A stretch of DNA of 64,000 nt from a virus (IMGVR_UViG_3300032167_000002:88286-152285); one strand, 5' to 3'. Counted from the stretch's first letter, positions 1 through 64,000 are shown. Made by a program: numbers and translations. The notes: generated from the letters alone by a model not told the origin.

Positions 1-2892
1 GCCAAAAAAGCTAAAGATAACGGAGAGATAACTCAAGAAGAATATCAAAAGTTATTTGATGAGCTTTATGCTAAAGAGCAAGAGAAAAAATACTATGCAA
101 TGACTACATTAAAAACTGCTAGTATTGGAAGAGGTTTCTCTATTAATGACAAAGATTATGAATTAACCATAGAACAATATAATGCTATTTTAAATGAATT
201 AGATGAATATATTTTAGCAGAAACTTATGATGGTGAATTAAAAACTGATGCTGAAGGTAGAAAATTTAATTATAAGAGTAGATATGGTACTCTTTCTAAA
301 GCTTTACAAGAGTTTGAGGCTCAAGGTCATAAAGTTCTTGGAGATTCAGAAGAAGCTAGTGATGTTACTTTAACTGAAGTTGAGGTTACAAATCAAAGTC
401 ATATTCGTTTAGATGTTAAATCTCCTTATTTCTATATTATTAGCGAATAGGGTAAACGTATTTTAAATATTGGTGATGGCACTGGATTTGACTTTGAAGA
501 TTATCCATATTTACAATATTCAATTGAAAAGTTCCAGCGAGATAAAGATGGAACAATTCTTTTAGTTAATTTAACTGATGAAACTGGTTCAACTATTAAA
601 ATTGAAGATATAGATGAGGCTAAAGAATTATTAAATTCTGAATGTTCAATTTTAAGAAGTGATGCTTATAATCGTTTTTAGATAAAAAAGAGCATTACTC
701 AAAAAGATTATGATAATATTTGTTTAGATATTGAGGATTATCGTACTAAGAAATTAGCATATTTAAATACTTGGACAGAAGAAAATGCTGAAACTTTTAT
801 TGATAAGACTTATGAAGTTGAATATATTCAAAAAACTGGTTTTATTGGTACTGGTACACAAAAAACGAATTGGCTTGAACCTTATGGAAGAAACCTTTCT
901 AAAGGTTATTATTTAAAATCTAATGATTTTACTTATACTGCTTTTAGTAAAGAGGATGGTATTGCAAGCGGTCAAGGTTCAGGCTTTTTACTTGATTTAA
1001 CAAATGGACACATTAATGCAGCAAATTTAAGCATTGCTTCAAAAAATGTATTTATTGATTCTGGTAAAAATGCTGACCCATTTTTTATTATTAAAGATAA
1101 TGATGGATGTAATTTAATTTATGCTGGACAATAGGATTTTTATATTCAATCTCATACATATTCAAGATATGCTCTTGGAGATAGGCTAACTGATGATAAT
1201 GGTAAACAATATTATTATCCAGGTATGAAAATTGATACTGATGGAAATAATTTTTTATTTGATATTAGAGGTAATTATCAATCAATAGTAAATATTAATA
1301 AGGATGAATTTTTCCTGCAAACTGATAATTATAAAATTCGAGAATATATTACTATAACAAAGTGTTATAATCAAGATTATAGTATGAGTTTTGATATACA
1401 GGTCGGTAAAGCTGAAAAAGGACATATTATTTATACTGCACCAAATTTTAATAAAAAAAGTGAAAATGTTACGACTGAAGAACATACTTCTATTACTTTA
1501 TATGAAAGTAAAAAAATTGATGGAATAATGTGGTATAAAATTAACACTGAGCAATGGATACCAGCATTATCTTTTGAATCGATTGAGGTAAATGATGAAG
1601 GTATTGGTACTGGTATAACTTATTTAAACCAAATTATTTATAGCGATTCTGATTATAATTCTATTAAAGTTGGTTTTACCAAAGATTCTCATGTTGCAGG
1701 TGTTAATATTTAGGCAACTAGAGCAGTTGATGGAGTAGAGTGGTATGCTATTGAAGTACTTGAAGTTGAACATTGGCTACCTGATTATTCTATTAAAACT
1801 GGTTCTTATGGTTCTGGTATTAGATTGGATTTGTAGGGTGGCTATATTGATGCTTATGATTTTATTATTCGAGGTGAATCTAGCACAGACCCCACTGCAG
1901 GTTCTTATTTATTATTAGATAGTTAGACTCCGCAATTTGTAGTTCATTTAACTACTCCAGACAGTGATGGTATAATTGATTTAGATTTAATTAAAATTTC
2001 TCCAGATGAATTTTATTTACATTCTGCAAATTGGTTAGAAACTACTACTCAAGTCACCACTTAGCGGACAGCTAAGATGGACGGCGGCTGGAATATTAGA
2101 AGCGGTCCTGGTATGGATTATTCTATTATCGGTTATTCTTCAAGTGGAAAAAGAGTGGTTGTATATGAAAAGCAGGGAGATTGGTACTGTATCGGAGAAG
2201 ACTAGTGGATTTGGTATGAAGGTTTAACTGATTTTCAAGAAGGTGGAACCGCAAATAAAACTTATGGCACTGGCATGGAAATTGATTTAAATGATGGTCG
2301 TATTACTGCATACAATGCCAATAATGCGGGTAAAGAATTATTAATTAATTCATTACATGATACATATCCAATTTAGCTAGGAGAAATTGGAGATTATAAT
2401 TTCCAAATTGGTTGGGATGGTAGTTTAAAGGGCGGTAGTATTTATGGTTGGAGTATTGATGCAAGTGGTACTGCTACGTTTAATCGTTTGAATGCTAATG
2501 GTGGTGTTTTAAGTTGGATGTCTATCGGCAGTGCTAATATTTATGATGTTGATATTACTTCTGGCACAATTGCAGGTATGGACTTCACTACTGGAGGCAT
2601 TACTGCAGGAGATTGGAATTTTAGTTCTAATGGATTAAGTCATAATGGAAAAGCAATGGAAAAGAAAACTTATGATTCAGTGCGCTATATGTCTTTATGG
2701 ACAAAAAAAATACCAGTAAGTGTTAGCGGTAGTTGCTCAATCGAAATTGATGGAGCTACTTATTATGGCTCATGCTCTGCTAGTGGAAATACTACTGAAG
2801 ATGTAGGTTATAGAATTGGTTATGTAAAAATGATTTATAATGGATATGGAGAAGAAGGTCAAGAGTCTGCAGTTGTATTTACACCAGCATAA
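1..2892 (+). CDS. 5'-partial tail-associated protein (at least 963 aa) with a bacterial SH3 (SH3b) cell-wall-binding-like domain (NIRSGPGMDYSIIGYSSSGKRVVVYEKQGDWYCI). Nine in-frame TAG codons at 448, 679, 1132, 1711, 1834, 1924, 2062, 2203 and 2374 are read as sense. Stop is TAA at 2890.
   Basis: Frame 1 checked codon by codon from 1 to 2892. It contains no TAA or TGA, only 9 TAG. The three same-frame track ORFs (100..450, 1225..1713, 2488..2892) are pieces of one gene. SH3b motif recognised by eye. Confidence 0.7.
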
Positions 2893-2901
2893 GGAGGATT
2901 T

Positions 2902-3270
2902 ATGACAAATTTAGAAATTTTAAATTTTAATGAATTATATAAACAAAATTTTCAAGAATTTGATGAATTATTACCAGCAAAAATTTTGTTTTATATTTAT
3001 AAAAATTTATCATTAATTGAAATATCATTACATCATATTGAAAATACTAGAAATAGTATTATTCGTAAATATGGTTTAATTGATGAATCAAAAGATACTA
3101 TTCAAATTCCTCCAGAATTAGTAAATGAAGCTAATAAGGAATTAGAAGAAGTTTTAAAAATGGAATAGGAAATTAATTTTTTTTTAATTCCTCTTTCATG
3201 GTTTGATAATATCAATCTTAATCCAAAGCATATGAAATTATTATGGATTATGATTGATGAAAATAAATAA
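2902..3270 (+). CDS. Small hypothetical protein (122 aa with TAG at 3166 read through), paralogue of the following gene.
   Basis: RBS AAGGAGGA upstream. Frame 1 continues past TAG 3166 to TAA 3268. The extended C-terminus (LLWIMIDENK) matches the paralogue C-terminus (ALMFMID). The TAG aligns to CAG (Gln) in the paralogue. Confidence 0.6.
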
Positions 3271-3284
3271 AGGAGAAAAAGGTT

Positions 3285-3653
3285 ATGACTATGACAAACT
3301 TTGAAATTTACAATATCGCTAAAGCTATGAGTGACGCCTTCCAGGATGGCACTCAGTATCTACCCGTTAAAGTAAATTTTTTCATTCAGAAGAATAAAGC
3401 TACTTTAATGTCTTTAGCACAAGATATTGATAATTCTCGTATTGAGATTGTTAAGAATTATGGTACTATGGATGAAGAATCCAATCAGTTTATTGTACCA
3501 GAAGATAAGATTGAAGCTGCTAACGCAGAGTTGATGGACCTGTTTAATATTGAGCAGGAAGTTGATATTCGTAAGGTAAGCATTGATTCTTTCCCCGAAG
3601 ATATTAATCTAACCACTGCTCAAATGGAAGCTTTAATGTTTATGATTGACTAA
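3285..3653 (+). CDS. Small hypothetical protein (122 aa), paralogue of 2902..3270.
   Basis: Intact ORF with RBS AAAGGAGAAAAAGG. N-terminal MTNxEIxN and C-terminal AN.EL... similarity to the upstream gene. Confidence 0.65.
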   Translation: MTMTNFEIYNIAKAMSDAFQDGTQYLPVKVNFFIQKNKATLMSLAQDIDNSRIEIVKNYGTMDEESNQFIVPEDKIEAANAELMDLFNIEQEVDIRKVSIDSFPEDINLTTAQMEALMFMID

Positions 3654-3693: not shown

Positions 3694-6678
3694 TTGCAGA
3701 GAGAAAGGAGATTAATGATGTCAACTACTAAGTTATACCCTCCTTATGTGGATGCCGCAGTTCCTGCGCAGTTGGTTCCCGATGAAAGTACATCAGAAAC
3801 AACTGTAACACTTACTATTCCATTTCAATTAAATAAGGCAGTAAGTTGGGTAGATTTAAAATCAAAAAATAATATCGCTTTGATTTTGAAAACGGTATCA
3901 ACAGGAAAAGTTTTATTAGATTGTTATAAAGGAAACGTTTTAACTCATTATGAACCTACTGGAACACCTGCCGCAGAATTTGAAATTCCTAAAACTACTT
4001 TTAATCCTGTTGCAGGATAGTTTTATAAAGCTCAAATCGCTTTCATAGATTCTGATGATACTATTGGATATTTTTCAGATGTGACTATTGTAAAATTTAC
4101 TGCAATTCCTGTTATAGGTATTGCCGATTTAGCAAGTGGAACAAATGCTGCTCAATATGTTTATACAGGTACATTTTCAACTACTGATGTTACTGAAAAA
4201 GTATACTCATATGAATTTAATATTTATGATTGTGAAACTGGTATTTTGCATGACACAAGCGGAGTTATGATTCATAATAGTAGCACAGATGTTGAACGAG
4301 GAAAATCTTTTGACACTTGGACATCTTATAAAACTTTAATTAATGAGCGTCAATATTCTATATGTTATAAAATCACTACTATTAATGGTTTAGTGATGGA
4401 AACTCCAGCTTATGGAATAATGGCAGTTGAAACTTTAGATTTAGTTTCTAGAAACACAGAATTTATTGCAACATTATATAGTGATGATGCTTATATTCAT
4501 GTTCATATTATGCCAAAAGATATTGATGCAAATATTAAAGCAATTACTGGTAATTTTATTTTAGTTAGAGCATCCAGTGAAGATGGATTTGGTAGCTGGA
4601 ATGAAATTTATCGTTTCACTTTGATTAATAACTATCCTTTAATGACACTGTGGAAAGATTTTACGGTGCAACAAGGATATTCATATAAATATGCTGTACA
4701 AGCCTATAATTCTAAAGGTGTTTATTCTAATCGATTAGAATGTAAATATTATGCTAGTGAATTTGATGAGCGCAATGATGACATTAACCGTTAGAATTGG
4801 AACGCAGAAGCAAAAGACCCTATTGAAAATACTAACTTAAATTGGAATTATTTACAAGAAATTGATGGGTCTCCAACTCAAAGCGGATTGCCAGTAGATT
4901 TTGAAGATGCTTTTCTTTATGATGGAAAACGCCAATTGAGAATTAGATATAATCCAAAAATTAGTTCTTTTAAATCAACTGTGCTTGAAACTAAAATGGA
5001 TACTATTGGAGGTAAATATCCTTTTATTTTCCGTAACGGAAATGTTGAATATAAAGAATTCCCAATTTCTGGTTTAATTACAATGATTAGCGATGAAAAT
5101 GCTTTATTTATGGAGTATTCCAAAGAGAATCCAAAAGCTCGTCAGTACAGTACACATCCGCCATATGGTAATGATAATGCGGATTGGTGGGTCAGCCGAA
5201 CTGGTATGACGGAGTATGAAGTTCGTAAGACCCAAGAAAAAGAGTTAAGTGGTTCTCCCACAGCATTAACCGCTAGCAACTTCCGCAAAGAGCGTGAATT
5301 TAAAATGGAAGTGTTGGATTGGTTAACAAATGGACAACCAAAGCTATTCCGTTCTCCAAGTGAAGGTAATTTTATTGTTCGTTTAATGAATACATCATTA
5401 ACTCCAAATGATTAGCTTGGACGATTATTACATACTTTCCAATGTACTGCATATGAAATTGCGGAATGTAATTATGAAAATTTGGAAAAATATAAATTTA
5501 TTCATGCTCTCGATACTAGTTATTAGGAATTGAAATTTAAAATGCTTGATTGCAATAATACTTTTGCTGACATTCATAATAGACAAATTATTATTGAGGG
5601 TGGTGCTTATTACTTTGCAGTAATAGACCAATGGAGTTATTTGGCATTGAGAATTACTTATGTAAATGGTACATCACAAGTTATTGATGTTGGTAACTCT
5701 ACTGGACAATATTTGTTTGACAGAGAAGCATTAAAAAATAACCCAATTGTTTCAGTAACTTATCAAGAAGGTGCGCCAGATGTTGGTAGTAAAATTCTTT
5801 ATGGATATTATGATACATCAGATATTGCTTTCTCTTTGATTGCAAGTGTTACAAGAGAAACAGTAGTAGACCAAATTATCGGTCATCCGCAAACTTCTTA
5901 CCGTATAGATAGTTTTAAAATTAATTATGTTCCAACTATTTTAAATGGCATTGGATATAGAGACTTGGCTACAGATTTACAAAAGGTTTATGGCGAAGAT
6001 GAAATTCCTCGTTGTACTCTTGGTAAATTTTATTACTTAAAAGCTGAACCCAGAGAGATTACTTTCGTTTATAAAAAAGAAAATAAATATTATGAAACTT
6101 CAAAATGTGATTATGAGGTTCGTCAATGGGATGATACTTATATTTATAAAGTTTTCGAAGAAAGTGATGGCACTTGGGAACCTACGAATCAATATAGTGG
6201 ACGTCCTTCAAATAATATCTTATTACCAGAGCCAAGTTATCTCATTAAATTAAATGCAAAACCCAATAATGGTATTGACCCTGCTCAAGAAGAGTTTGTG
6301 GATTTAAGTTTAAAGGGCGGTAGCGGAGGTAATGCTCCTATTACTACTGGACGATATGAACTTTATTTTGATTTGGATAAAGTAGAAAGTTTATATATTG
6401 GCTCAGGAGTTGTATGTGAAATTTGTTATAATTTAAATACAATTCATTATGAAGCTGAAGATAATATTCAATATAGTGAATTGGTTGATAGATATAATAC
6501 TTGGCAAAATCAGCAACGTCAATATAAGAGTATGTTAAAAGCTGGATATAGTAGATTTAGTGCTGATGTCGAACGCGCTCGTATGAATATGGAACAAAGT
6601 TATCATTAGTATTTAAATCAGTTAGAATATATTCTAAATAAGTTGCAAATGGATGGTGAGACTTATTATGCTTTATGA
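3694..6678 (+). CDS. Large tail/baseplate structural protein (about 994 aa). Five in-frame TAG codons at 4018, 4792, 5413, 5524 and 6607. Stop is TGA at 6676.
   Basis: Five same-frame (frame 1) track ORFs (3694..4020, 4081..4794, 4888..5415, 5530..6609) are contiguous through TAG only. Codons verified manually across every junction. RBS AGAGAAAGGAG upstream of 3694. Confidence 0.65.
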
Positions 6679-9310
6679 TAAAGAATTTTTGAAAGAATTA
6701 GACAAAACAAAAAATAAAATTGTCTATGCAAAAGTTACTGCATTAACAGTAGAGGAGTCCCCCATTGAAAGCATTGAAGGTCGTGTAACCCAGGGCTCCA
6801 TCAACTTAGATGGAGCTTCTGCGGTTCGTCGTTCTTGTTCTTTATCAATTGTAGCAGAGAATTTTGATTATTCAGATTATTTATGGGGAATGAATACAAA
6901 ATTTAAGTTAGAAGTTGGTTTACAAAATGATATAAATGATAATTTTCCCAAGATTATTTGGTTTAACCAGGGAATTTATATCATAACATCTTTTAATACA
7001 TCTAGAACTACCAATAACTTTACTATTACTATTCAAGGAAAAGATAAGATGTGTCTTTTGAATGGAGAAGTAAGTGGTACTATTGGAGTACAAACAGATT
7101 TTGGTACAATTGAAGAAGAAGATAATGAAGGAACTTGGACTATTAGACAAATTCCTATTCCTGAAATTATCCGTAATATGGTTCATGCATATGGCGGAGA
7201 GCCTTATCATAATATTATTATTAAAGATTTGGATACTTTAGGCTTAGAGCTTTTAGAATATCGATATGAAAATATGCCTTTAGTTATGTATCGTAAAGCT
7301 GAAAGTAATACATATACAAATATTGCTTTTTTAGATAGTGATATGTATTTATATGCTAATAAAAATGATGTCGGAAATGTAGATAGACGAGTATATTTAA
7401 AAGATATTCCCGATACACATTTTGAACAATTAATTGATGGTATTCATACAAGTGACCCTATTGTATATTATGATGATGATAAAGTTGGTTATAAATTAAC
7501 TAAGCTTCAATACGGAGATACCGCAGGTTATCGAACAACTGAATTAACATATGCTGGAGACTTGATTGCAAACGTAGGTGAATCAATTACTTCAGTTCTT
7601 GATAAAATTAAAAATATGCTTGTTGAATTTGAATATTTTTATGATGTTGATGGACGTTTTATATTCCAGAAGAAACAATCTTATACTCAGACTCTATGGT
7701 CTCCAAGTGGTGATGGAGAAGAGGGAATCACAGAAGGTTTGTTATGGAGTGATGCAGCCGCATATACTTTTAGTGGCAGCGAATTAATCACTGGTTTTAA
7801 TAATAATCCTAATCTTTTGAATTTAAGAAATGATTTTTCAATTTGGGGTGAGCGCACAGGCATTAGCGGCGCGCAGATTCCCATTCATTTAAGATATGCC
7901 ATTGATGAAAAACCAACTGCTTATACAACTATTTCTTTAACTGATTTTGATAAGAATGAAGTGGATGAATATAATTTAAAATATGGAACTAATTTAAATA
8001 ATAATCCTACTTCAATTACTTATTCTATTCACCCAAATATAAGTAGAGCTAAGAATTATGTTTATGTAACCGATTGGCGAGAAGTATTGTTCCAAATGGC
8101 AAAAGATTATTTTAGATATAATACTTTAAGTGATTTTGAAATTCGTGTGCGCGAAGCTAATCCAACGCTCTATCCCTCTGGCCGCACAGGCTATGAACAA
8201 TATTATACTGATATTCAAGTTTGCTGGCGTTAGCTATATAATCCTGAATTACGAAATAAAATTGCGGATTATACAGAAGAAGTTGCGGCATTAACGAATG
8301 AAGTGACTCAATTAGATAAAGAAATTAAAGATATTGAGAATAGAATTATTGAGTTGAATAATCAATTAAATACTGCTACAACTCAGAGTTCAATTGATAG
8401 TATTGTTTTATCAATTTTATCAGAGCAACAATCTCGCACTGATAAAAAAGCATTAAAATCTCAAAAAGAATATCTTATCGAACAAAAATAGGAAAGCTTA
8501 GATTCTTATAATGAAGATATTTTAAATTATTATCAAGCTCAAGAATTAATAGAATTAGATGTAAATTTATTTACTACTCAATTCCCCTTATCTGACAGTT
8601 AGATTACTATTGATATTTTAGATAGATTTAGAGTTCCAAAAAATTTAATTGATGAACTTTTAGATGAGAAAACCGGTGAACCAATTGCTATTAAAGTTAG
8701 TGATATCCTTTACTTTAAAGAAGATGATAGTTATTTTTCTGTTATTAATAGTTTTGATGATTATGTAATAATTGCATATTATGATAAATCTCGTCTACAT
8801 TGGCATAAAAATGTTTTTGAGAATCCTGGCAATTTAAATTATTGGTTTGACTTTTTAGATACCGCAGGAGAGCTAAGCCAATATAGCGTACGAGCTATTG
8901 GAGCACGGACGAAAGCTATTAATGAAAATACCGTAAAATCCATTTATTTTAGGGAAACTCCACCAGTTATTTTCGCACCAGATATTACTGATGACGAAAA
9001 AATGAGTGGTTATAAATATATTCAAATTCCAGAATTTGAAATGGATAAAATGTTTAGTATTAGTGCGCAAGGTAAATCCGCAAAAGAGCGCTTAGATGAA
9101 CTTCTTTACAATCATGGTTATTGTACAGAAAGTGCAACTATTACAACAATTCCAGTATATTATTTACAACCAAACACTCGTATTAAAGTATCTGATGAAA
9201 AAACTAAAATTGATGGAGAATACATTGTAAGTAAACTTACAATTCCTTTAGCACATAACGGAACTATGTAGTTAACTACAACGAAAGCTGCATAGACACT
9301 ATTCTTTTAA
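6653..9310 (+). CDS. Tail structural protein (about 885 aa), possibly a siphovirus-type distal-tail/endopeptidase-tail-like protein. TAG at 8231, 8489, 8600, 9269 and 9293 read through. Stop is TAA at 9308. Start is either ATG 6653 or ATG 6668.
   Basis: Frame 2 ORFs 6653..8233, 8303..8491 and 9002..9271 are joined by TAG-only gaps, verified codon by codon. Overlaps the stop of the upstream gene. Confidence 0.6.
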
Positions 9311-9322: not shown

Positions 9323-9661
9323 TTGATGAAAAAGATATATCAATATCGTTATTATGGTAATTCTGATAAGAATTATCCGAAAACTCTAAATGCAGTACAA
9401 TTAACCAATGGTGAAATTTTTAATCAAACCAGTAAGGGTTCCATTACTCATTTGGGTTTACAAGCTTCTCCAGGGACTACATTTTTTTTGAATCGTTGTG
9501 ATAATCCAATTCAAATTGGAAAAACTGGCATCTACGAGATAGATGTTACTGGTTATGGTTATATTACAAGCATTATGTTTAGTGATGATACACTAGCATT
9601 AGTAAATGAAGATAATGGAATTATTATTGATATTATATATGAAGGAGGTACTATCGAATGA
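9323..9661 (+). CDS. Hypothetical protein (112 aa).
   Basis: Intact ORF with RBS AGAGGAGAGG and TGA stop. No amber codons. Confidence 0.6.
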   Translation: MMKKIYQYRYYGNSDKNYPKTLNAVQLTNGEIFNQTSKGSITHLGLQASPGTTFFLNRCDNPIQIGKTGIYEIDVTGYGYITSIMFSDDTLALVNEDNGIIIDIIYEGGTIE

Positions 9662-15663: not shown

Positions 15664-15728
15664 TTTGAGGACAAAAGGTATTAAGAAGATTATTTCGATT
15701 TTTAATTAAAAATAGAGGATAATCTAAT

Positions 15729-15767
15729 AGGTGGGAAGAAGATTATTCTTCTCACCTATTTTTTTGT
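15729..15767 (+). terminator. Rho-independent terminator: AGGTGGGAAGAAG / CTTCTCACCT stem followed by a T-run.
   Basis: Inverted repeat followed by ATTTTTTTG, read directly. Confidence 0.6.
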
Positions 15768-15796
15768 TTATAAAGGAAAGAAAGGAGTTTAAATAA

Positions 15797-45965: not shown

Positions 45966-45989
45966 GGGAATTTACTCCTTTCGTATGAG

Positions 45990-46014: not shown

Positions 46015-46015
46015 A

Positions 46016-48878: not shown

Positions 48879-49102
48879 ATGTCAACTTCCTCCTCAAATT
48901 CGTATTCTAATTTGCCGGGAAGTTCACCCTCCCAGAATGTTGCATGACCATCGCAATCGGGATTCTCACACTTATAAGGATATTGTGCTGGATAAGTAGT
49001 GAGACAAATGCCAGTGGGGATTAACTCCCCACCGCACTTATCACAAATTGCTCTGGTTGTATAAATATTTTTTACCTTATATCGTTTAAGCATCTTCCTC
49101 AA
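48857..49102 (-). CDS. Small zinc-ribbon protein (81 aa; CDKCGG...CENPDCDGH).
   Basis: Track ORF. Cys pairs seen by eye. Confidence 0.5.
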   Translation of the reverse strand: MRKMLKRYKVKNIYTTRAICDKCGGELIPTGICLTTYPAQYPYKCENPDCDGHATFWEGELPGKLEYEFEEEVDICTKLLP

Positions 49103-53048: not shown

Positions 53049-53054
53049 ATGAAT

Positions 53055-53095
53055 ATCCTTTCACTTATTTATTATATAATAATTATACCAAAATT
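53055..53095 (-). promoter_or_regulatory. Sigma70-like promoter for - strand transcription: -35 TTGACT (rc 53084..53089), 16-nt spacer, extended -10 TGGTATAAT (rc 53062..53070). Lies upstream of the polymerase gene.
   Basis: Near-consensus hexamers read from the reverse complement. The same motif recurs at 54601 and 61904. Confidence 0.55.
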
Positions 53096-53112
53096 TTTAT
53101 TATAAGTCAACC

Positions 53113-54599: not shown

Positions 54600-54630
54600 T
54601 ATTATACCAAAATTTATATTAAAAATCAAC
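54600..54630 (-). promoter_or_regulatory. Sigma70-like promoter (- strand): -35 TTGATT (rc 54624..54629), 17-nt spacer, extended -10 TGGTATAAT (rc 54601..54609).
   Basis: Read from the reverse complement. Identical architecture to the 61904 promoter. Confidence 0.5.
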
Positions 54631-55077
54631 GGTAAAATCCCATAAGGGTCGCTGTTGTATAAAGTCCTCACTATCAAGGTCGACAAAACCAGGTAAAAAT
54701 GGATTTTGCTCAATTTGGGAAAAAATTTCTAAATCCCCTTTTTGATTTGGGTTTTCGGTCTTCTCGTCCAAGGCCGACCGGAGCTCGTCTATTTTTATTT
54801 CATCTATATCAATTATTGCTTGTAATGCAGCATCTCGACTTTCACACTCATATCGCAAATCATGCAAGTCATCTTTAATAGCAGTAATCTCACTACTATG
54901 ATATTCTAGACGAGAAAGAACTTCATTCATTCTTTTAATTGCCTAAGTCATTTCATAAGCCGTAACCCCAGTAGATGACATAGCTCGAGCCAAATCTTGT
55001 ATTTGACTTGAAAATTGATTCATTGATGGTAGTTCATATACGGTGCCATTCACCGCAATTGAATGTAACTGTGACAT
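54619..55077 (-). CDS. Hypothetical protein (152 aa) with one TAG read through. N-terminal 49 aa (MSQLHSIAVNGTVYELPSMNQF...) is missed by standard-code ORF calling.
   Basis: RBS AGGAGAAAATAAG plus ATG at rc(55075..55077). Frame continuous with track ORF 54619..54930 through a single TAG. Confidence 0.5.
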
Positions 55078-55090
55078 CTTATTTTCTCCT

Positions 55091-55132
55091 ATAAATGAAA
55101 ATAATGGGAACATAATATTAAATTATGTTCCC
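55091..55132 (-). terminator. Rho-independent terminator for the upstream (-) gene: GGGAACATAAT-ATTAA-ATTATGTTCCC followed by a T-rich tract on the - strand.
   Basis: Perfect 11-bp inverted repeat read directly. Confidence 0.6.
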
Positions 55133-55140: not shown

Positions 55141-56028
55141 TTAGCCTACGAAATACTCGTAAGCACGTCTTGCGTAATCTCTACGCACCCAACGATGTCC
55201 TTCGCCACAACGCTCATAATAACAAGCGAAAGCATAAGCACAATCTTCAGGAGTTTCTGCATTTATAATCTTATCGAGCTGACTGTCAGTAACCTGCTTA
55301 GTCACTCCATTAGTTCCATATAATTCGTCTTTTACGAAGTCAAGCTGGTTTTCAACACTGGGATTATTTCCATAGATTGAAAATAACTGCTGTTTGCGGC
55401 CGCCTAACCACTGAATCATACCAAAACCACTAGAACTACTTACGTCCCAGTCAAGGTCGGAAGTCCAGCAACCGCCGCATTCTGCCATCATGTTACCCAT
55501 GATACCAGCGCAAACAATATCACTAAAACCAAGTTCATTCTTCATATAGAGCCAAGCTTGAGTGGCGACCGGATATTCCTCTGCGCGCCCTCTCCAATTC
55601 TCTTCCTCTTGGCGAATTAACTGTTGTTCGGTATAATACTCAACATCTGCTTCAGCATTCTCGAAATCAGTTTTAGCCATGACTACCGCCGGGTGTTCTG
55701 TATCATAGCCCAAGAGCAATAATCCTTCATACACTGATTTTGTTGTATCTTTGCGAAAGATGGCATCTTCTAATGCAGTATTAGCCTCGTCTAATGTAGC
55801 AGGTTCGACACGCTCGACCTCTACAACTTCTAATATAATTATCTCTTCTTCTGGTTCGGTTTCAAGAACCGGTTCAGAAGGCTCAGAAGGGATGTAAGCT
55901 TCCGAAATAGTAGCAACTGGTTCAGTTGGTATAGATTGATTTGCACTGGCAGTGATGGCAATCGTAGCAGCCAATCCTGCGAATAACAAGCTCAATATAG
56001 CAACTAAACAAATAATTTTTCTTTTCAT
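55141..56028 (-). CDS. Secreted peptidoglycan hydrolase, phage-type lysozyme-like (295 aa). N-terminal signal peptide/anchor (MKRKIICLVAILSLLFAGLAATIAITASA). C-terminal domain carries CAGIMGNMMAECGG and a Cys-rich tail.
   Basis: Signal peptide and lysozyme-2-like motif recognised by eye. The location inside the replication module is unusual. Confidence 0.5.
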   Translation of the reverse strand: MKRKIICLVAILSLLFAGLAATIAITASANQSIPTEPVATISEAYIPSEPSEPVLETEPEEEIIILEVVEVERVEPATLDEANTALEDAIFRKDTTKSVYEGLLLLGYDTEHPAVVMAKTDFENAEADVEYYTEQQLIRQEEENWRGRAEEYPVATQAWLYMKNELGFSDIVCAGIMGNMMAECGGCWTSDLDWDVSSSSGFGMIQWLGGRKQQLFSIYGNNPSVENQLDFVKDELYGTNGVTKQVTDSQLDKIINAETPEDCAYAFACYYERCGEGHRWVRRDYARRAYEYFVG

Positions 56029-56067: not shown

Positions 56068-57804
56068 TTAGAAATAGTATTTCTGTTCTCCTACGATTTC
56101 GTAATCTTCAATAATAATTTGTGGTGTTACCGTTCCATTCCAAACGTTGCGCTCACATTTACCCACAACGTTGATAGTAATGCATCCGGATTCGGAGCGG
56201 AGTTTTTCATACTCTTCTTGTGACGACTTGAATTTGATTAAACTCGTGCCATTTGGCAAGGTTATCTTCAGAGTCGGACTCTTATCGGGCGACATTAAAA
56301 CTACATTACCTGCATATACATTAATGTATTCAATCGCCACATAAGGTTCATCGACTCCTTGGCCCCATAAAGATTTGAGTTCAGCGATTTCAACAATATC
56401 TTTTCCACGGAAATCAGCACCATTGAAAATGAAATCAACTTTATAACATGGGGTAAAGTCAAATTCTGCGAGTTCTCGATTAGAGTATTCAATAAAGGTT
56501 TTAAATGCTTCATCAGTAATGCCAACACCCAATGCGTTAGCATGGCCTTCGGCATACATGACTAAATCACTTTCCTTTAAGAATTCTCTTAGGTTATCAA
56601 ATTTCGATTTATCGTATCCTCTTCCTGAACCCTCCCAGCCATCTACTGTCTTATTTAGTAGCAGAACTGGTCGTTGATATTTCGCCATTAGTTGGTTTGC
56701 AATCAAACCAGTAAGGTTTCTATCGGCCGCAAAAGTATCTAATTTGACAACCAAAATCTTATTCTCTAACAGATTTTTTTCTTTGATTATGCGTTCAATG
56801 TTCTCCAAGGCTGCGTCTCTTGCTTTTGTCTGTCTATTTTTAATGTTTGTGCAATTACGACAAGCCTGCTCTACTCTTGTCTCCTGCTGACCCTTACATC
56901 CTCTCTTGGTTGATGGGACTAGTTCATATCCCCGATAGTCAAGCATAGACTCGAATAGCATGAGCTTTTCTTCTTGCGTTCCCATTCGAATAGTGGCATT
57001 TACATAGGGAGCAATATAGAAAGCTACTCCAATAGGTGTGATTTCACCTTTCAGCGAATACGCTTGTTTGTCTACCATACCTTTGAAGTATGGATTACGA
57101 ATATTTTCAAGACCGCGTGTAATCAGATGTCTCGTTTCAAAATCTCGTAAGTCCATCATGTCGGCCACCATGCCCAGTGCGACCAAATCCAAATAATCAT
57201 CTGCGTAATCAACATTGAGGAGTTCATCCATATAAGAACAGAACTTATATACCATTCCAACTCCAGACAAAGACTTGGTGGGATAATCACAAAGTTGATT
57301 GTTAATAATCACAGCATTTTCGGAAATTTTATCTGCTTCATGGTGGTCAATTACCAACACATCCACTCCTTTGGACTTCAACTGTTGATGTTCATCATAG
57401 TCATTAGAACTAGAGTCTGGTGCGATAACCAGTTTTACATCATCAGGGATGGTTTCCAAAAGAATTCCGTGTTGTTTCCCCGTATGGATACGATAGTAAA
57501 TATTAGATTGCACAAAGCCGGGGAAAAGACGATTTAAATAGTTGATTAAAGCGGCGGCTGAAGTATAACCATCACAGTCGCTATCAATCTAAATTAGAAC
57601 TTTGTCACCTTGTGCAATGTGTTTCACGAGGACTTTTGCGCCCTCTGCGACATTCATAATCATCTATGGATTAAGAATATCTTCATCTGTTGTGTTTAAA
57701 TAGTGTTCTACATTTTCGGGGTCAATACCTCGATTAAACAGCACCTGTTCGACCGCACTTAATTCTCTAGGCGGGATGCGAGATGCTAAAAGTTGATATT
57801 CCAT
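56068..57804 (-). CDS. RecJ-like DHH-family ssDNA exonuclease/phosphoesterase (578 aa) with two TAG read through. The true N-terminus (97 aa, including DHH motif I IDSDCDGYTS) lies upstream of the track ORF.
   Basis: DHH motif VLVIDHHEA in the track ORF. Reverse-complement translation of 57514..57804 gives MEYQLLASRIPPRELSAVEQVLFNRGIDPENVEHYLNTTDEDILNP-MIMNVAEGAKVLVKHIAQGDKVLI-IDSDCDGYTSAAAL, in frame (1737 nt). RBS AAAGGAGG. Confidence 0.65.
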
Positions 57805-57868: not shown

Positions 57869-58186
57869 TCACTCCTTGGCATGAAAAAATTCATAATGTC
57901 GAGGACCGTTATAACAAATCAAGGTTCTTTTAATAACGCAATCGACGAATTCTTCACTGCACCGGGAGTCAATCCAAGCATAATTGGAGCGAATACCTCT
58001 ACTAGACTCGCTAGCACTAGCAACTCTCCATATGTCGCCATTCTCAAACTCAACCCAAGAATTTTGACGAGAATAAACTTCTCTAGTAGGATTAATACCA
58101 GACCAAATATATCTATCTCTGATATATTTTAGTTTTTCAATTCCATCACCCGCTCTATCATAAGACCAGATAACACCTTTCATCAT
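57869..58186 (-). CDS. Hypothetical protein (105 aa).
   Basis: Track ORF with TGA stop. ATGA overlap with the primase. Confidence 0.45.
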   Translation of the reverse strand: MMKGVIWSYDRAGDGIEKLKYIRDRYIWSGINPTREVYSRQNSWVEFENGDIWRVASASESSRGIRSNYAWIDSRCSEEFVDCVIKRTLICYNGPRHYEFFHAKE

Positions 58187-59286
58187 AAAACAATCCTCTC
58201 TTTAAATAGCTTTAAAAATGTATCGGGGCCGCAGTCAATCGGACTGTCCTTATAACCAGTAATCATGTTCTTATCAAAAATAAATGAAATCAAAACAAAG
58301 GTCTTATATTTATCTCTTAATCTTACTAAATTAGTCTTTAAATGTTTAAATTCTTCATCACCGATTTCTTGGAACTGTCTATCAAATGCGACAATAATTT
58401 CTTCGGCGCCAGCTTCTATGAGCATTTGTATCTGGTATGATGACACACTCGACCCGCAGCACGCAACCGAAATATCATTTTCCAATCCAAAATATGATTG
58501 ATATAACAAACAAGATTTTTCACCTTCAAAAATAATCGCTTTCTTCATCAGTTTGATATTATCTTTACTATTGTTGAAATTATATAAATTCATTCCAAGA
58601 GGATGATTATATAACTCACGATTAATTCTCATAGGTCTATACTTGCCGAATCGCTCGCCCTCTTCCGCACATAGTGTTCGCCCACGCAAACCTATAAATC
58701 GACCATCTTTGTCGAAGTGCGGAATTGTGATTTGGTCTCCTCCTGGATAATAACCAATTCTTGCTTGGTCAAGTGCGGCTTGGGTAATACCCTCCCGCAA
58801 CCAGGGACCTATCTTCACAGAGTAGTTGAAGCGTTCCAATATATCATTTTCATATTCTTTTAAGACGACCGTGTTGGTTTTCACAACAACATCTTGAATA
58901 CGCTCGTAGTTAGCAAGGTATTTCCAATCGTCTAATGCTTCATCTTCTGGACGGTCTTCATGGTCGCCAGAAAATCCAAATCGTTGGGCAATCCACCTAA
59001 CTGCGTCATTTAGGTCGAACTCTTTATCCCATTGGATTTTAGCGACCTTAGTAGTTAGTTCGAAAATATCAAAGTAGCTATCACAACCTGTATAACAACG
59101 AAACAACCCAGTATTTTCATAGTAATATAATTTTCTACTTCCTTCACCGGGAGGGTTGTGGCAGATGGTAGTGGAGGTAAACCCGAACACTTCACGTCCA
59201 GGGTCTCCACCCCATTCCTGCAACAAATCGTATATATTTTCGTCTGTTAGAGCTTCTCTGATTTTCGTTTTGTCAAATACTAACAT
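58183..59286 (-). CDS. DNA primase, DnaG-like with a CHC2 zinc finger, 367 aa.
   Basis: CHNPPGEGSRKLYYYENTGLFRCYTGC zinc-binding motif. Located next to the DnaB-like helicase. Confidence 0.7.
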   Translation of the reverse strand: MLVFDKTKIREALTDENIYDLLQEWGGDPGREVFGFTSTTICHNPPGEGSRKLYYYENTGLFRCYTGCDSYFDIFELTTKVAKIQWDKEFDLNDAVRWIAQRFGFSGDHEDRPEDEALDDWKYLANYERIQDVVVKTNTVVLKEYENDILERFNYSVKIGPWLREGITQAALDQARIGYYPGGDQITIPHFDKDGRFIGLRGRTLCAEEGERFGKYRPMRINRELYNHPLGMNLYNFNNSKDNIKLMKKAIIFEGEKSCLLYQSYFGLENDISVACCGSSVSSYQIQMLIEAGAEEIIVAFDRQFQEIGDEEFKHLKTNLVRLRDKYKTFVLISFIFDKNMITGYKDSPIDCGPDTFLKLFKERIVL

Positions 59287-59588
59287 TAATTAATATCAAC
59301 AAGAACCTTGACGCAGAATCCTTTCAAACCGCACTCGCGGTTTACATAATCACACAGAATCTCCTGTGCGGGCTTGGGCAACTTACCGCTCTTAGTCTTG
59401 GCGTCATTGAGAATCTGCTCAGCCATGACCTTGCCCATCTTGTACTCGAAAGTGCCGGCGCAAACATCAGGAGCGGGAATGGTGTCACGCTTCTTGTTAA
59501 AAGCTCCGTCCAAACGAGGTGTATTGTTATTGGGCTTGCGGTTATTGTTTCTCTTGCCGTTATTATTCTTCTTTACAAACTCTGCCAT
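59286..59588 (-). CDS. Small Asn/Lys-rich hypothetical protein. Likely start at the internal Met (about 100 aa), avoiding a 56-nt overlap with the helicase. The track version is 59286..59720.
   Basis: RBS AAAAGGAG upstream of ATG at rc(59586..59588). Confidence 0.4.
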   Translation of the reverse strand: MAEFVKKNNNGKRNNNRKPNNNTPRLDGAFNKKRDTIPAPDVCAGTFEYKMGKVMAEQILNDAKTKSGKLPKPAQEILCDYVNRECGLKGFCVKVLVDIN

Positions 59589-59664
59589 ATCATTAATCTC
59601 CTTTTTATCAATAATTCCAAAATCGGAATCGTGTAACAAATTTAATTTACTTCTTGAGCCACGC

Positions 59665-61206
59665 TCAATCTTCGCACTCGAAAGCTGACTCTTCATCGAT
59701 TCTAATACGAACATCATCAATACTCACCATTTCATAATCATATGTGGTGCAGAACATTGGTTTAATTCGGCAAACACCCAAATCAGCCTTACACCACAAA
59801 ATTACACCCTTGTATCGTCCTCGTCTATTTTTATAAATAGACATCTTAATTGTAGGTCTTTCAAAAATATTAGAGGACAATATATTTTCCAGAGATACCA
59901 AATCATCATCTTTTACAGACAACAAAATAGAACCATAGTCAATCTTATCCGCAATGGCTTTCGCACCACGCAGTAAGTTCTGGTCGGGAGTTTTACTATC
60001 TTGGTAATCACCGTTCAACTGGGTTGCTGACATAATAAACACACCATACTGATTACAAATGTCTTTTAAACGAGTTGACAGCATGAATAGAATATTATCT
60101 TCTCTCAACTTAACGCCACCAGAACGCTTTGTGATTTCTTCCAAGATTTTCAAACTTGTATGAATATAATCGTGGAACACATATTTTACATCATGTTCAC
60201 GAATATTCTTTTTGATTTTATTTTCAACATCCTGTAGAGAGAAGTCAGGCAACTCTTCTACATAAATAGGACTTTCTTTTAATAACTTTGCCGCTTGAAG
60301 AATTCGTTCCTCTTCGCCTTCGCCATATTCGCCATTAAGAATATGTTCCTCGTTAACGTTAGATAAGAACGCAAGCATCATAGTTTGAATTTCTTCAAGT
60401 TCCTGCTCTGTTGTGATGAATAAAACTGGCTCGGCAGGGCCACTACCAATCCATCCAAAAGTTTCATCGTAAATCTTATTACAACCAATATAGCAGCAGT
60501 CCGCAATCATTGAACGAGTTTTACCGATACCGGTTGCCGCAGAACGAAGATAGAATTTCTTCAATCTTGCGCCACGAGTAACTGTATTAATAAGCGGGCC
60601 ATATAGAGGTACACCGACTTCTGGATGCTCTTTGAATTTTTCAATCAAATCAAAAATTCCATCACCGGCTTGCTGTGCTTCTCCAAAAGCGTCATCAACA
60701 TATTGAAGTCGAATATCATCAATCTTTTTATCAACTTTATCAGCAATTTCTTCCAAAGTTGAATTATCTAATTGGTCCTCTTGGAGTTGCTTTTTCTTTG
60801 TATCTAAAATATTATCTGCGTCATAAATATCGGTAACATCAATTCCGCAGTTATCAAATGCACGAAGTAAAGAGAATTTCTTTAATCGTCCATAATAGTA
60901 ATCAAATGCTGATGGCATTGCGTTTTCTGAAATCTTCAGTAACCACTCTTCGCCCTTGCCTTGCTTATATACCGCAGCACTCTTGGGTCTTGACGATAAG
61001 AAATCGGAGATACTCTCCAATGTGATTTTATTCGCACCCAATTCATGGATTTTATAAATCGCACCAAAAACAGTTTTATGGAAAGGGTCTGCGAAATCTT
61101 CATCGACAATTGAATATCTATCAGTCGCTTCCAGAAGCTGAGGGGTATTAAACACGCAGCCAATTACCTGCATAATCGCAGTTGTATCTACATACTTACT
61201 GCCCAT
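59665..61206 (-). CDS. DnaB-like replicative helicase, 513 aa.
   Basis: Walker A SAATGIGKT, Walker B-like VFHDYIH, arginine finger NRRG, DnaB-like N-terminal domain. Confidence 0.7.
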   Translation of the reverse strand: MGSKYVDTTAIMQVIGCVFNTPQLLEATDRYSIVDEDFADPFHKTVFGAIYKIHELGANKITLESISDFLSSRPKSAAVYKQGKGEEWLLKISENAMPSAFDYYYGRLKKFSLLRAFDNCGIDVTDIYDADNILDTKKKQLQEDQLDNSTLEEIADKVDKKIDDIRLQYVDDAFGEAQQAGDGIFDLIEKFKEHPEVGVPLYGPLINTVTRGARLKKFYLRSAATGIGKTRSMIADCCYIGCNKIYDETFGWIGSGPAEPVLFITTEQELEEIQTMMLAFLSNVNEEHILNGEYGEGEEERILQAAKLLKESPIYVEELPDFSLQDVENKIKKNIREHDVKYVFHDYIHTSLKILEEITKRSGGVKLREDNILFMLSTRLKDICNQYGVFIMSATQLNGDYQDSKTPDQNLLRGAKAIADKIDYGSILLSVKDDDLVSLENILSSNIFERPTIKMSIYKNRRGRYKGVILWCKADLGVCRIKPMFCTTYDYEMVSIDDVRIRIDEESAFECED

Positions 61207-61209: not shown

Positions 61210-61869
61210 TTACTCCTCCTCGTCTAAAAATGTGAATAACGGACGCTTTTTAACTTTTCTCTGCGGCCTGGGGATAACAATCTCCTTGACCTTTGGAGTA
61301 TATTGTTCGACTTCAACATCTTTATTTTTCTGCTTGGCAAGCCATAAATTATAATAGTAGTTATAAGCATTTTCATACACATAAGGTACAATACCAATAC
61401 CACCATTTGCTTTTGACTTGTCTCCGCCTTTTATTTCATAATGATATACTAATGCTTTGCGAATGCCCGAATATGTATAATTGAATTCCTCAACATACTT
61501 TTTAATCTGCGCTCTAACTCTTGGGTCAATGTAAGTTGTATTAAATAATTCTTTAATATAATCTTCCAACTGTTCCTTATCAGTTTTTTCACGCTTCTCT
61601 TCAAGCTCTTGACAAGCCTTATGAACATATTTATTATTTCCAATCATAACGCAATCTGCGTCTTTCTTGGACATTGGTTTTTGACAATATGCACACTTAA
61701 CATTATCAAGTGGGTCAATGATTTCTTTCTTTACATAGTTTGGGTCTTTCTCTGCTTCACGAAGCATACAGGCGGCGTGTGCATAGCGACGCGCACCGAT
61801 TAACGCATATTCTTCCTTATCTCTGTCAAACTTCTATTTACAATAAGGACAGAGAACCATATGTGCCAT
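61210..61869 (-). CDS. Tandem zinc-finger protein (219 aa) with one TAG read through. Two repeats of CxxC-(22-23)-HxxC (CPYCK-KF...YAHAAC and CAYCQKP...YVHKAC).
   Basis: Reverse-complement translation of 61768..61869 gives MAHMVLCPYCK-KFDRDKEEYALIGARRYAHAACMLREAEKDPNY, continuous with the track ORF. RBS AAAGGAG. The track shows only the second finger. Confidence 0.55.
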
Positions 61870-61966: not shown

Positions 61967-62938
61967 TTACATTAGGTCAGACTTAATGTCAGCAACAATC
62001 AAGCTAACGAATTCAGCCTGCTCAGGAGTGGTGTCTCCTACCTTCTTGCCCTTGCCAAGATATCTCTCAACAATAGCAGTAATCTTGGGGCCGTTGGTAG
62101 TACCCTTACTCATTAGCTGACCGACCAAGTCCTGGAATTCAGCCATCAGAGCATCGTAATCATAAGTTACCGCAGTAGGAGCAACAATGCGCTCGCTAGT
62201 TACGAACTGACCAGCAGTTTCAGCGGCTTCCTTGTCAATAGCTTCATTCAAAGCATTAACAAGATTCTTGTAGCTCATAACAATTTCAGTAGGCATATAC
62301 TTGAAACGGCAGCCGCACTCAATAGTACCAGAAGCATCACGCAGAGTCAGAACAGACATCTCACCTGCGGCCTTCTGATGAGCATAACCGTAAATATCAG
62401 CCATACCAGCGATAACAGTCTTGGTGGAGTTGCTTAGAGTAGGACGAATCTTCAAAGTCTTAGTACCATCGGGATTATCAATGGATTCGGGCTTATCGTG
62501 TCCAATGAAGAATACTGCATAACCCAACTGAGTCAAGCCACGGAATACTTCATTAAACTCTTCCTTGAACTTAGTCCAACCTTTACCGTAGCCAAGGTCA
62601 CCTAAGTCCTCAATGCCATTCTGATTGCAGATATACTTCTTACAACGGTCGGCAGCGATGTCAATAGTGTCAATAATAACACAGCGATACATCTCCTGAA
62701 CACGAGGGTCCTTCAACTGACGGTACAGCTGCTTCATTTCGGCCCAGGAAGTAACATCCTGTGCCATAACACCAGGCAATGCGTGATAACCAGGTTCGAA
62801 AGCAACTAGAAGGGCCTTATCCATCTGTACGGCAAGAGTAGTCTTGCCGCACTTAGGAGCGCCGTAAATATATGTGATGTAACCACTTAGGTCACGAGAA
62901 ACTTTATGAGGCTGTAGAGCCAATAAATCAATTGCCAT
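61967..62938 (-). CDS. RecA-like/Sak4-like AAA ATPase (recombination/annealing-associated), 323 aa.
   Basis: Walker A GAPKCGKTT, Walker B CVIIDTID. Position next to the SSB-like gene. Confidence 0.6.
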   Translation of the reverse strand: MAIDLLALQPHKVSRDLSGYITYIYGAPKCGKTTLAVQMDKALLVAFEPGYHALPGVMAQDVTSWAEMKQLYRQLKDPRVQEMYRCVIIDTIDIAADRCKKYICNQNGIEDLGDLGYGKGWTKFKEEFNEVFRGLTQLGYAVFFIGHDKPESIDNPDGTKTLKIRPTLSNSTKTVIAGMADIYGYAHQKAAGEMSVLTLRDASGTIECGCRFKYMPTEIVMSYKNLVNALNEAIDKEAAETAGQFVTSERIVAPTAVTYDYDALMAEFQDLVGQLMSKGTTNGPKITAIVERYLGKGKKVGDTTPEQAEFVSLIVADIKSDLM

Positions 62939-62961
62939 GTTTATGTCCTCCTCAGTTTAAA

Positions 62962-63900
62962 TTAGAAATTAAATCCGCCCTGAGCAGGAGCTGCGGCCTT
63001 AGGAGCAGCGTTACGAGATGCCTTATATTCATCCTGACGCTTCTTCATAGCAGCCAAATCAACCTCACGCTTCTGGATAGCTTCATTCAGCTCAGCAGCA
63101 GTGATAGAACTCTCGTCGTCCCATACGTAAGGCTCCTTAGCTGCGCCAGTGATGACGAAATCACGACGAGTATTCTTAACCTCACGAACCTCGTCCTCAC
63201 CGAATGCGGACTCAGTTACAATCTGACGAACAACGACTTCAGATACCTGACGTCCCCAAACACAAGTGAACACAGGATTCTTCTGAGAAGCCTCAAGACT
63301 CTCAAAATATCTCATAGCGTTAGGATTAGTAGCGCTGAACTCAATAGGAAGCAAACTCTTACGGAAGTCGAAGATAGCACCCTTAACAATGCACTTCTCA
63401 GGCAGGTTCTTCTCATCGTCAGCATCAATATGCTTTACAGAAGTGATAACCATATCAGCCTTGAAAGTGTTACGAACCTTTTCATCTTCGTCCAAGGCAT
63501 CAACCTTATGAACGAAACCGCCTTCGTTACGCTTTGCAGAAACAAGCTCTTCCTTACCATTACGGTCGGTATAGAACTCATTTAGACCCAATGCAGAGTC
63601 AACGCGAAGCTTAACGGCCTTATCAGCACCATCCTTCATATAAGAACCGAAAGTGCCATTAATGATATTACTCAAAGTAGTGAAAGTATCATTGGGCTTG
63701 CCGGAACCGAAAGTTGCAGTCACATAAGTGAAATGAACTGGAACAATATTAGTCATAGCATCATCAGTTGCAATGCTGATAGTACCAGAAATGAACTTGG
63801 TTCCAGGATTCTTGGAGGTCTCTCCAGACTCCTTCAAAGTTAAGTCATGCTCATACAAAATACCCTCAATGTGAGTCTGATTAATCATAGTCTTTTTCAT
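62962..63900 (-). CDS. Putative single-strand DNA-binding/annealing protein (312 aa) with a C-terminal aromatic tail (...GGFNF).
   Basis: Genomic context (upstream of the Sak4-like ATPase) and a C-terminal flexible Ala/Pro-rich tail ending in Phe. Weak. Confidence 0.35.
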   Translation of the reverse strand: MKKTMINQTHIEGILYEHDLTLKESGETSKNPGTKFISGTISIATDDAMTNIVPVHFTYVTATFGSGKPNDTFTTLSNIINGTFGSYMKDGADKAVKLRVDSALGLNEFYTDRNGKEELVSAKRNEGGFVHKVDALDEDEKVRNTFKADMVITSVKHIDADDEKNLPEKCIVKGAIFDFRKSLLPIEFSATNPNAMRYFESLEASQKNPVFTCVWGRQVSEVVVRQIVTESAFGEDEVREVKNTRRDFVITGAAKEPYVWDDESSITAAELNEAIQKREVDLAAMKKRQDEYKASRNAAPKAAAPAQGGFNF

Positions 63901-63917
63901 AATTAAATTAAATCTCC

Positions 63918-64000
63918 TTATTCAATCTCAATATTTTTTCCATTGTCAGTGATAGAGTAGATAACCGGGTCCTGACCAACCTTTTCGACGAAACCATCAG
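63918..64000 (-). CDS. 3' end of a gene continuing beyond the window (...DGFVEKVGQDPVIYSITDNGKNIEIE*).
   Basis: Open - strand frame to the window edge. TAA at rc(63918..63920). Confidence 0.4.
   Translation of the reverse strand, partial: DGFVEKVGQDPVIYSITDNGKNIEIE

Follow-up and report, generated by a model that had tools for sequence, protein, structure and literature searches.

The stretch of DNA analysed here, which we call the window, spans 64,000 bases of a viral genome (IMGVR_UViG_3300032167_000002:88286-152285; 36.2% guanine plus cytosine (GC), no N) and appears to come from an SPbeta-like gut siphovirus, of whose genome (about 158 kb or more) it would make up some 40%. When genes were called with only TAA and TGA as stops, the refined set came to 47 genes that cover 95.5% of the window and fall into two arms. 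The plus strand up to 41.9 kb carries the virion, tail and fibre genes, with a gene for a tape-measure protein of 3091 amino acids (aa) just left of the window. The minus strand from 41.9 to 63.9 kb carries DNA replication and nucleotide metabolism, with a RuvC-like resolvase, dUTPase, NrdG, NrdD, a guanylate-kinase-family enzyme, the DNA polymerase III (PolIII) alpha subunit, a PIF1-like helicase, a Phage_lysozyme2-domain protein, RecJ, a DnaB-like helicase and YorH-like, AAA_24 and YorF-like proteins among the recognisable products. In 21 of the 47 genes UAG is translated as glutamine, and UAA and UGA are the sole terminators (genetic code 15).

An earlier reading of the sequence alone, here called the original prediction, had pointed to seven regions in which long frames are broken by TAG only, and its TAG counts, as well as the lack of TAA and TGA, were reproduced exactly in all seven. 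On the plus strand, nine in-frame TAGs precede a TAA at 2890 in region 1-2892, which encodes the C-terminal 963 codons of a 2547-aa virion/tail protein; five precede a TGA at 3694-6678 (987-aa structural gene, 3715-6678); eight, two of them adjacent, precede a TAA at 27717-30134 (805-aa virion structural protein, phrog_26670); and five precede a TAA at 35239-38766 (1175-aa fibre-like gene). On the minus strand, the RuvC-like resolvase gene (43155-43640) has three TAGs, at 43619, 43448 and 43268, the guanylate-kinase-family gene (48309-48878) has four, at 48821, 48755, 48701 and 48446, one of them within the TTRPMR-x-GE motif, and the gene for the RecJ-like DHH exonuclease (56068-57804) has two, at 57666 and 57591. 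Inside the seven frames there is neither a TAA nor a TGA, while their complementary strands carry dozens of stops each (50-60). Such frames do not arise by chance: when the window was shuffled 100 times, the longest frame free of TAA and TGA averaged 542 nucleotides (nt) and never exceeded 885 nt, and 13 TAG-containing frames of the real window are longer than that, which excludes chance, as had been argued. Re-calling the window with TAG as sense, as in table 15, raised the coverage by frames of at least 900 nt from 49% under the standard code to 79%, and to the 95.5% coding given above after refinement. Reading TGA or TAA as sense instead did not restore the long frames (51% and 59%), and these two codes were rejected.

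Within the 47 genes (20,389 codons) we counted 69 in-frame TAGs, no TAA or TGA and no frameshifts; in particular, no in-frame TAA or TGA was seen inside conserved domains in this phage. The TAGs are spread evenly along the genes (Kolmogorov-Smirnov p = 0.40), as expected for a sense codon. That at least 20 genes on both strands depend on TAG held up, since the 21 TAG-carrying genes lie on both strands and in both modules. The wider statement that TAG is sense "throughout" stands for the two strands and modules and not for every gene, as 26 of the 47 genes (53% of codons) carry no TAG and can be read under either code. The terminators are 36 TAA, 11 TGA and no TAG. For the TAG-containing genes the claim that every gene ends in TAA or TGA is circular; for the 26 TAG-free genes it is informative, and because these also never end in TAG, the conclusion that TAG is not a terminator is free of that circularity.

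Conserved domains continue across the TAGs. Profile searches were run on proteins with X at the TAG positions, and the Pfam profiles Guanylate_kin (3-178/182) and DHH (1-125/125), the latter together with RecJ_OB, run across the masked sites; for RuvC only the N-terminal half was matched across them, so that the claim of conserved enzymes continuing past TAG is fully borne out for the first two and in part for the third. One detail had to be corrected: motif I of RecJ, said to lie upstream of a TAG, is a DxD motif (IDSDCDG) situated just downstream of TAG-72.

To read the meaning of the codon, window proteins were aligned by tblastn with related loci, over 200 in all, drawn from IMG/VR, from metagenomes and from metagenome-assembled genomes (MAGs), and the subject codon opposite each TAG was recorded. 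A window TAG faced a sense codon of a relative at 126 aligned sites, and at 55 of these (44%) the codon was CAA or CAG (39 and 16, respectively); a further 31 sites faced a TAG, and the next most frequent residues were Glu (12), Asn (10) and Ser (10). Compared with the substitution profiles that the 20 amino acids show empirically in these alignments, the TAG sites gave a log-likelihood of -285.7 for Gln and -424.5 for the runner-up, Lys. All three RuvC sites are CAA, CAG or TAG in nine of nine relatives, the single TAG site of a 122-aa gene (2902-3270, plus strand) is likewise CAG, CAA or TAG, and direct exchanges of Q and TAG between relatives were found in an 84-aa gene at 39499-39753. The last of these genes has one TAG, near its 3' end, which we considered as a terminator and rejected, the protein tail beyond it being conserved in relatives. 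Moreover, the same TAGs occur in independent ENA and JGI assemblies, which argues strongly against assembly error. Public gene calls for RecJ differ, ENA giving one 578-aa protein with the TAG read through and JGI two pieces of 46 and 481 aa, and a public protein collection already contains proteins of full length that have Q where the window has TAG. The assignment to glutamine, originally a guess, is thus backed by the codon comparison and by the Gln-type tRNAs with a CUA anticodon found in relatives.

These tRNAs lie in a conserved array just upstream of a DUF2828 gene in four relatives (labelled L211, L215, L216 and L220), in the order Tyr, Thr, Ser, tRNA(CUA), Leu(UAA), Gly, Lys, Lys, Met, Cys; in L211, a relative of 210 kb, tRNA-Gln(UUG) and tRNA-Gln(CUG) are encoded further upstream. 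The CUA tRNAs score 49-61 bits with Rfam against a threshold of 29, and the 75-nt form is 79% identical to Sup-CTA-2 of phage phAss-1. A 5'-UGGGG end, a weak 1:72 pair and G73 are tRNA-Gln identity features, and among the array tRNAs these features, the 1:72 pair being weak or mismatched, are common only to the suppressors and the two tRNA-Gln genes. The lineage thus has an amber suppressor of the Gln type, encoded on the same arm as the replication genes. Genes around the array in relatives contain one TAG in 2815 codons and two in 3943, and end only in TAA or TGA. By analogy, the window phage would itself carry a tRNA(CUA) of about 75 nt with a sequence similar to TGGGGTGTCGTTCAAAGGCCAGGACCGCGGTCTCTAAAACCGCAGATGTGAGTTCGATTCTCACCGCCCCCGCCA, beside tRNA-Leu(UAA) and upstream of a DUF2828 gene.

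Two forms of the CUA tRNA were seen. L215, L216 and L220 have a plain 75-nt tRNA(CUA). In L211 (ENA ERZ27227483:k141_12588, 7595-7691) the tRNA(CUA) has 97 nt and a long extra arm made of a 5-bp stem (CACGG/CCGTG) and a 7-nt loop, CUCUGAC, that resembles a second anticodon arm with the anticodon CUG (Gln) and with U33 and A37 in place; Sup-CTA-1 of phAss-1 (91 nt, L059 12442-12532) has a long extra arm too. That the arm of L211 mimics a Gln anticodon for the charging enzyme is pure speculation on our part.

The genes of the window form two classes. The 21 genes that share the 69 TAGs are mostly low-copy virion, tail and fibre genes, joined by those for RuvC, the guanylate-kinase-family enzyme, RecJ and the YorH-like protein; the other 26 (10,741 codons), including the genes for PolIII alpha, NrdD and NrdG, the DnaB-like and PIF1-like helicases and a 2683-aa protein, have none. 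TAG makes up 20% of Gln-equivalent codons in the first class and 0 of 347 in the second, and at a 20% rate the chance of finding no TAG among 347 Gln codons is 8.5e-35. The classes differ more broadly in codon usage: GC at third codon positions (GC3) is 0.20 in TAG-containing and 0.31 in TAG-free genes, the CAG share of CAA+CAG is 0.16 and 0.48, and the AAG share of AAA+AAG is 0.20 and 0.54. Per 1000 codons, TAG occurs 4.0 times in the structural arm and 2.2 times in the replication arm. As a separate observation, the contrast within this one genome is extreme, CAG being nearly absent from TAG-containing genes (43 CAG, 229 CAA) and the AAA_24 and YorF-like genes (61967-63900) using CAG only (20 CAG, no CAA).

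Taken together, the data are best explained by an SPbeta-like code-15 gut siphovirus with a phage-encoded tRNA(CUA) and TAG as a translational gate, an explanation to which, as a whole, we give a probability of roughly 0.88. A phage-encoded 75-nt tRNA with the anticodon CUA, derived from tRNA-Gln, would decode UAG; its gene would lie outside the window in the tRNA array on the early, minus-strand arm; and the host, presumably using the standard code, would aminoacylate it by its own glutamine-charging route. TAG-free genes, including most of those around the array, could be translated first under the host's code, and TAG-containing genes would yield full-length protein only after the suppressor had accumulated and could compete with release factor 1 (RF1), so that TAG may act as a gate. 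In these gating steps we adopt the model already published (Borges et al., bioRxiv 10.1101/2021.08.26.457843; Peters et al. 2022, PMC9523058).

Several observations weigh against parts of this explanation. Neither ARAGORN nor Rfam, run both at gathering thresholds and at E values up to 5, found a tRNA in the window, and none was found in about 17 kb of this phage's own retrievable flanks, even though ARAGORN recovered both known CUA tRNAs of phAss-1 as a positive control. The suppressor was observed only in relatives, so the expectation of a CUA tRNA is confirmed for the four array-bearing genomes and not for the window or its flanks. The link to those genomes is indirect: they are tied through DUF2828 (82-98% identical) to a 132-kb relative, whose replication proteins are 88-90% identical to those of the window phage. 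That relative's contig ends 1.25 kb upstream of its DUF2828 gene, short of the array, and no tRNA was found in about 100 kb of it, nor in the head module or the small-gene region upstream of the head module. A suppressor tRNA is detectable in only 40% of TAG-recoded genomes (Borges et al.), which makes its absence from a 64-kb window unremarkable. No release factor or aminoacyl-tRNA synthetase was found either; in the suggested search for a phage-encoded release factor, the motif GGQ[HN][VI]N had no match in six frames of the 3.38 Mb of fetched DNA. As to temporal gating, TAG status departs from the module boundary: a 12.7-kb TAG-free block (13942-26701) sits within the structural arm, and on the early arm four DNA-metabolism genes with TAG (RuvC, kinase, RecJ, YorH-like) stand among TAG-free replication genes. 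It is conceivable, though we hold it only tentatively, that TAG gates translation separately for each gene and does not switch the code of a whole module, the level of the suppressor setting the timing and stoichiometry of individual proteins; selection would then keep the two classes separate, in keeping with their distinct codon usage.

Among the other explanations, those that deny a phage-driven change to glutamine fare poorly. That the TAGs are real stops, in pseudogenes of a decaying element or through assembly errors, would account for the genes being fragmented under the standard code, as they are in the JGI calls, but TAG alone interrupts the frames, no excess of other disabling mutations was found, domains and conservation carry on past the TAGs, the two independent assemblies agree, TAG alternates with CAA and CAG in relatives, and the pattern recurs in dozens of related contigs; we regard this as the least credible of the alternatives, close to excluded. 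Hardly more probable is the insertion of another residue, such as pyrrolysine or a Ser-, Leu- or Tyr-type residue. ARAGORN labels CUA tRNAs 'Pyl' by default, and the 97-nt tRNA of L211 has a long extra arm, as class II tRNAs do. However, the substitutions seen at TAG sites match Gln far better than any other residue, the 75-nt CUA tRNAs of close relatives have tRNA-Gln acceptor features including G73, no Pyl family turned up in Pfam and PHROGs searches (which covered most window genes and none of the relatives' genes), and peptides confirm Gln at TAG in other code-15 phages. Only slightly better placed, and still very improbable, is a host that itself reads TAG as sense, with the phage simply matching it and no code switch. 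The lack of a tRNA in the window and of TAG among the 47 terminators would agree with such a host, but half of the coding capacity avoids TAG (P about 1e-34), which is unexpected for an ordinary codon; moreover, relatives carry their own CUA tRNA and sit in MAG bins from Clostridia, a class in which we know of no TAG-sense lineage. For all code-15 clades, Borges et al. predict Firmicutes or Bacteroidetes hosts with the standard code.

An idea of another kind concerns the avoidance of TAG, which may reflect translational efficiency and not timing: suppression would be incomplete, and highly expressed or essential genes would purge TAG, with low-copy genes tolerating it, without any switch. We consider this a possibility, clearly short of an even chance and far ahead of the three just discussed. 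In its favour, relatives have no TAG in the genes for the major capsid protein, a 294-aa protein, a scaffold-like 512-aa protein and a tail-tube-like 312-aa protein, and in the same relatives portal has three TAGs, TerL one and the tape measure 33 in 3125 codons, with fibre genes also carrying TAG; in addition, TAG-free and TAG-containing genes are interleaved within one direction of transcription. On the other hand, efficiency leaves the broad difference in codon usage (GC3 0.31 vs 0.20; AAG share 0.54 vs 0.20) unexplained, and there is no TAG in the gene for the 2683-aa protein, although this is low-copy. Efficiency can be reconciled with the explanation favoured above, of which it would alter only the last step, that of gating.

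As to identity, a megablast search with 25 kb of the window against 50,697 GenBank phage records gave no match. PolIII alpha is 38% identical to YorL of the SPbeta group, to Enterococcus phages and to phAss-1 alike, and either the window or the head module of relatives contains the Pfam families YorF, YorH, YonB, YonD_N and YonG_N, which are named after SPbeta genes. Identical proteins are present on at least 23 public contigs, the longest of 158.5 kb (ENA ERZ27248370:k141_3261538, 158,502 bp), in which the window lies in reverse orientation at roughly 34.7-98.7 kb, and one head-module protein has at least 6797 homologs at E <=1e-30. Some relatives lie in MAG bins assigned to Acutalibacteraceae, Clostridium, Lachnospiraceae and 'Mollicutes'. 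Although binning can misplace phage contigs, these labels point to Clostridia, and the host is probably a member of that class. Reading TAG as sense raised open-frame coverage by more than 0.10 in 57 of 121 related loci of at least 15 kb, in some from 3-6% to 90-96%; at least one relative (L093) reads equally well under the standard code. A further observation is that 18 of the 121 loci gain more than 0.10 if TGA is read as sense, which could mean that they are relatives with code 4, or could be noise where the baseline is low.

Gut phages with recoded stop codons are well known, code 15 having been described in the crAss-like, Lak, Garnet, Amethyst, Agate and Topaz clades (Borges et al.), and peptides confirming TAG as Gln in crAss-like phages (Peters et al. 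2022); in the NCBI taxonomy, phAss-1 and the Lak phages are placed in a 'Caudoviricetes code 15 clade'. Like the clades of Borges et al., the window phage is a low-GC gut phage, with a standard-code host inferred in its case, and shows partial recoding concentrated in structural and late genes, replication genes being 'variably' recoded, and depletion of TAG as a terminator. The mosaic of TAG-free and TAG-containing genes is thus the published norm for such phages. Unlike in those clades, no 'code-change module' with RF2 or a synthetase was found here, nor is recoding clearly strongest in lysis genes: the one gene with a recognisable lysozyme domain (55141-56028, minus strand) has no TAG. The crAss-like phages of Peters et al. 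share the reassignment and the recoded codons in structural proteins, but belong to an unrelated phage order with Bacteroidota hosts and have peptide proof, whereas the window phage is known from sequence alone.

The closest analogue is the proposed genus Phassvirus of Babkin et al. 2023 (PMC10607447), whose members (phAss-1, BK046881, BK025033) carry 2-3 Sup-CTA genes and share 80-86% nucleotide identity. Like the window phage, phAss-1 (OQ749652) belongs to the large siphoviruses of the gut and has a tape-measure protein of about 3100 aa, a YorL-type PolIII alpha, NrdD/NrdG, RecJ and RuvC, and its Sup-CTA tRNA adjoins tRNA-Leu(UAA) as in the array of this lineage. The two differ in GC content (36% in the window phage, 44.5% in phAss-1), and phAss-1 has two suppressor genes beside nrdD, where the window has none. 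With no megablast match and only 12 of 48 window proteins having a homolog, at 26-46% identity, the window phage is not a Phassvirus. Its closest cultured homologs for the replication and virion modules are SPbeta and relatives, which are nevertheless distant: the window PolIII alpha is 38% identical to SPbeta YorL over 99% of its length, and tail and fibre genes are not shared. We take SPbeta-group phages to be annotated with the standard code.

The phenomenon is thus already well described and experimentally validated, and what is new here is a further lineage and not a new kind; knowledge of the genetic code itself is unchanged. In practice, annotation with table 11 shatters 21 genes, and table 15 turns the window into a 95%-coding, interpretable genome. 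The case adds an abundant SPbeta-like lineage to the code-15 phages and provides a clean two-class gene set for testing amber recoding as a gate of timing against one of expression level.

The remaining genes of the plus-strand arm can be listed from the left. The gene at 1-2892, which follows the tape-measure gene, is present at full length in locus L004, after a 3091-aa PhageMin_Tail protein, and the 122-aa gene mentioned above comes next. Beyond the 987-aa structural gene lie an 885-aa tail protein gene (phrog_1887/32343; 6653-9310, five TAGs), a 395-aa gene (9658-10845, five), a TAG-free 486-aa gene (10932-12392) and a 505-aa gene (12407-13924, three). The TAG-free block at 13942-26701 (no TAG in 4094 codons) comprises genes for 573-aa, 2683-aa, 643-aa and 195-aa proteins. 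The 2683-aa protein (15797-23848) has a BspA-type leucine-rich repeat (LRR) near its C-terminus, the block around it has a higher GC3, and the protein may be a recently acquired host-binding module. The start of the 294-aa gene at 26820-27704 (three TAGs) was moved upstream to a GTG behind AAGGAGG, which gained two of its TAGs, and that of the 750-aa fibre-like gene at 30525-32777 (four TAGs) to a GTG behind AAAGGAG, which gained one; both relocated starts thus come after ribosome-binding sites. An apparent 1.08-kb gap at 30135-31217 was rejected, as it is the 5' part of this fibre-like gene with its GTG start. Upstream of the gene, at 30135-30524, we noted a small TAG-free open reading frame (ORF) of about 70-80 aa (MLRMDNMNV...), which is outside the gene list. 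An 808-aa virion structural/tail protein gene (32793-35219, three TAGs) precedes the 1175-aa fibre-like gene, after which come two small genes at 39006-39753, for 160 aa (two TAGs) and the 84-aa protein discussed above (one), and four TAG-free genes at 39774-41893 for 240, 139, 211 and 103 aa, the last metalloprotease-like, that end the arm.

On the minus strand, a 199-aa gene (41939-42538) has two TAGs and two small genes of 84 and 121 aa (44424-45043) have one each. NrdG, with an intact CxxxCxxC, and the anaerobic ribonucleotide reductase NrdD (45483-48223) are TAG-free; the Pfam match of NrdG (60-137/137) had raised the possibility of an N-terminal truncation with a hidden TAA or TGA, which we rejected because a TTG start at 45965 leaves the gene intact. 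A small TAG-free, Zn-ribbon-like ORF of about 60-89 aa lies at 48879-49085 between the kinase and PolIII genes and is likewise outside the gene list. The genes for PolIII alpha (YorL-like, 1320 aa) and the PIF1/RecD-like helicase (396 aa; both within 49086-54303) are TAG-free, a 164-aa gene (54619-55113) has one TAG, and beyond RecJ the 367-aa, 143-aa and DnaB-like 513-aa genes (58183-61206) have none. A plus-strand ORF at 57881-58255, once a candidate TAG gene, was discarded as spurious antisense, relatives showing TAA at its TAG position. The arm closes with the YorH-like 219-aa gene (61210-61869, one TAG) and the TAG-free AAA_24 (323 aa) and YorF-like (312 aa) genes.

The surroundings of the tRNA array in relatives show some further features. 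In L211 an ROOL RNA (RF03087, 316.5 bits, model 1-574/574) lies within the array, at 2719-3308, and the equivalent place in L215 (4411-4593) and L216 (5327-5509) gives weak partial matches to the OLE model (52 bits). The slot between the array and the DUF2828 gene is filled by a different restriction-modification or anti-defence cassette in each relative: N6_Mtase with Methylase_S in L215 (6862-9866), EcoRI_methylase with GmrSD/HNH in L216 (7430-9837) and L220 (6180-8569), and RE_Bsp6I with DNA_methylase in L217 (4849-6704). Downstream of DUF2828, an MVP_shoulder/Vault_3-like protein of 824-842 aa is encoded in L112 (5372-7897), L211 (13009-15537) and L220 (16060-18534), and L220 also encodes, at 11206-11667, an Mtd_N-domain protein of the kind targeted by diversity-generating retroelements.

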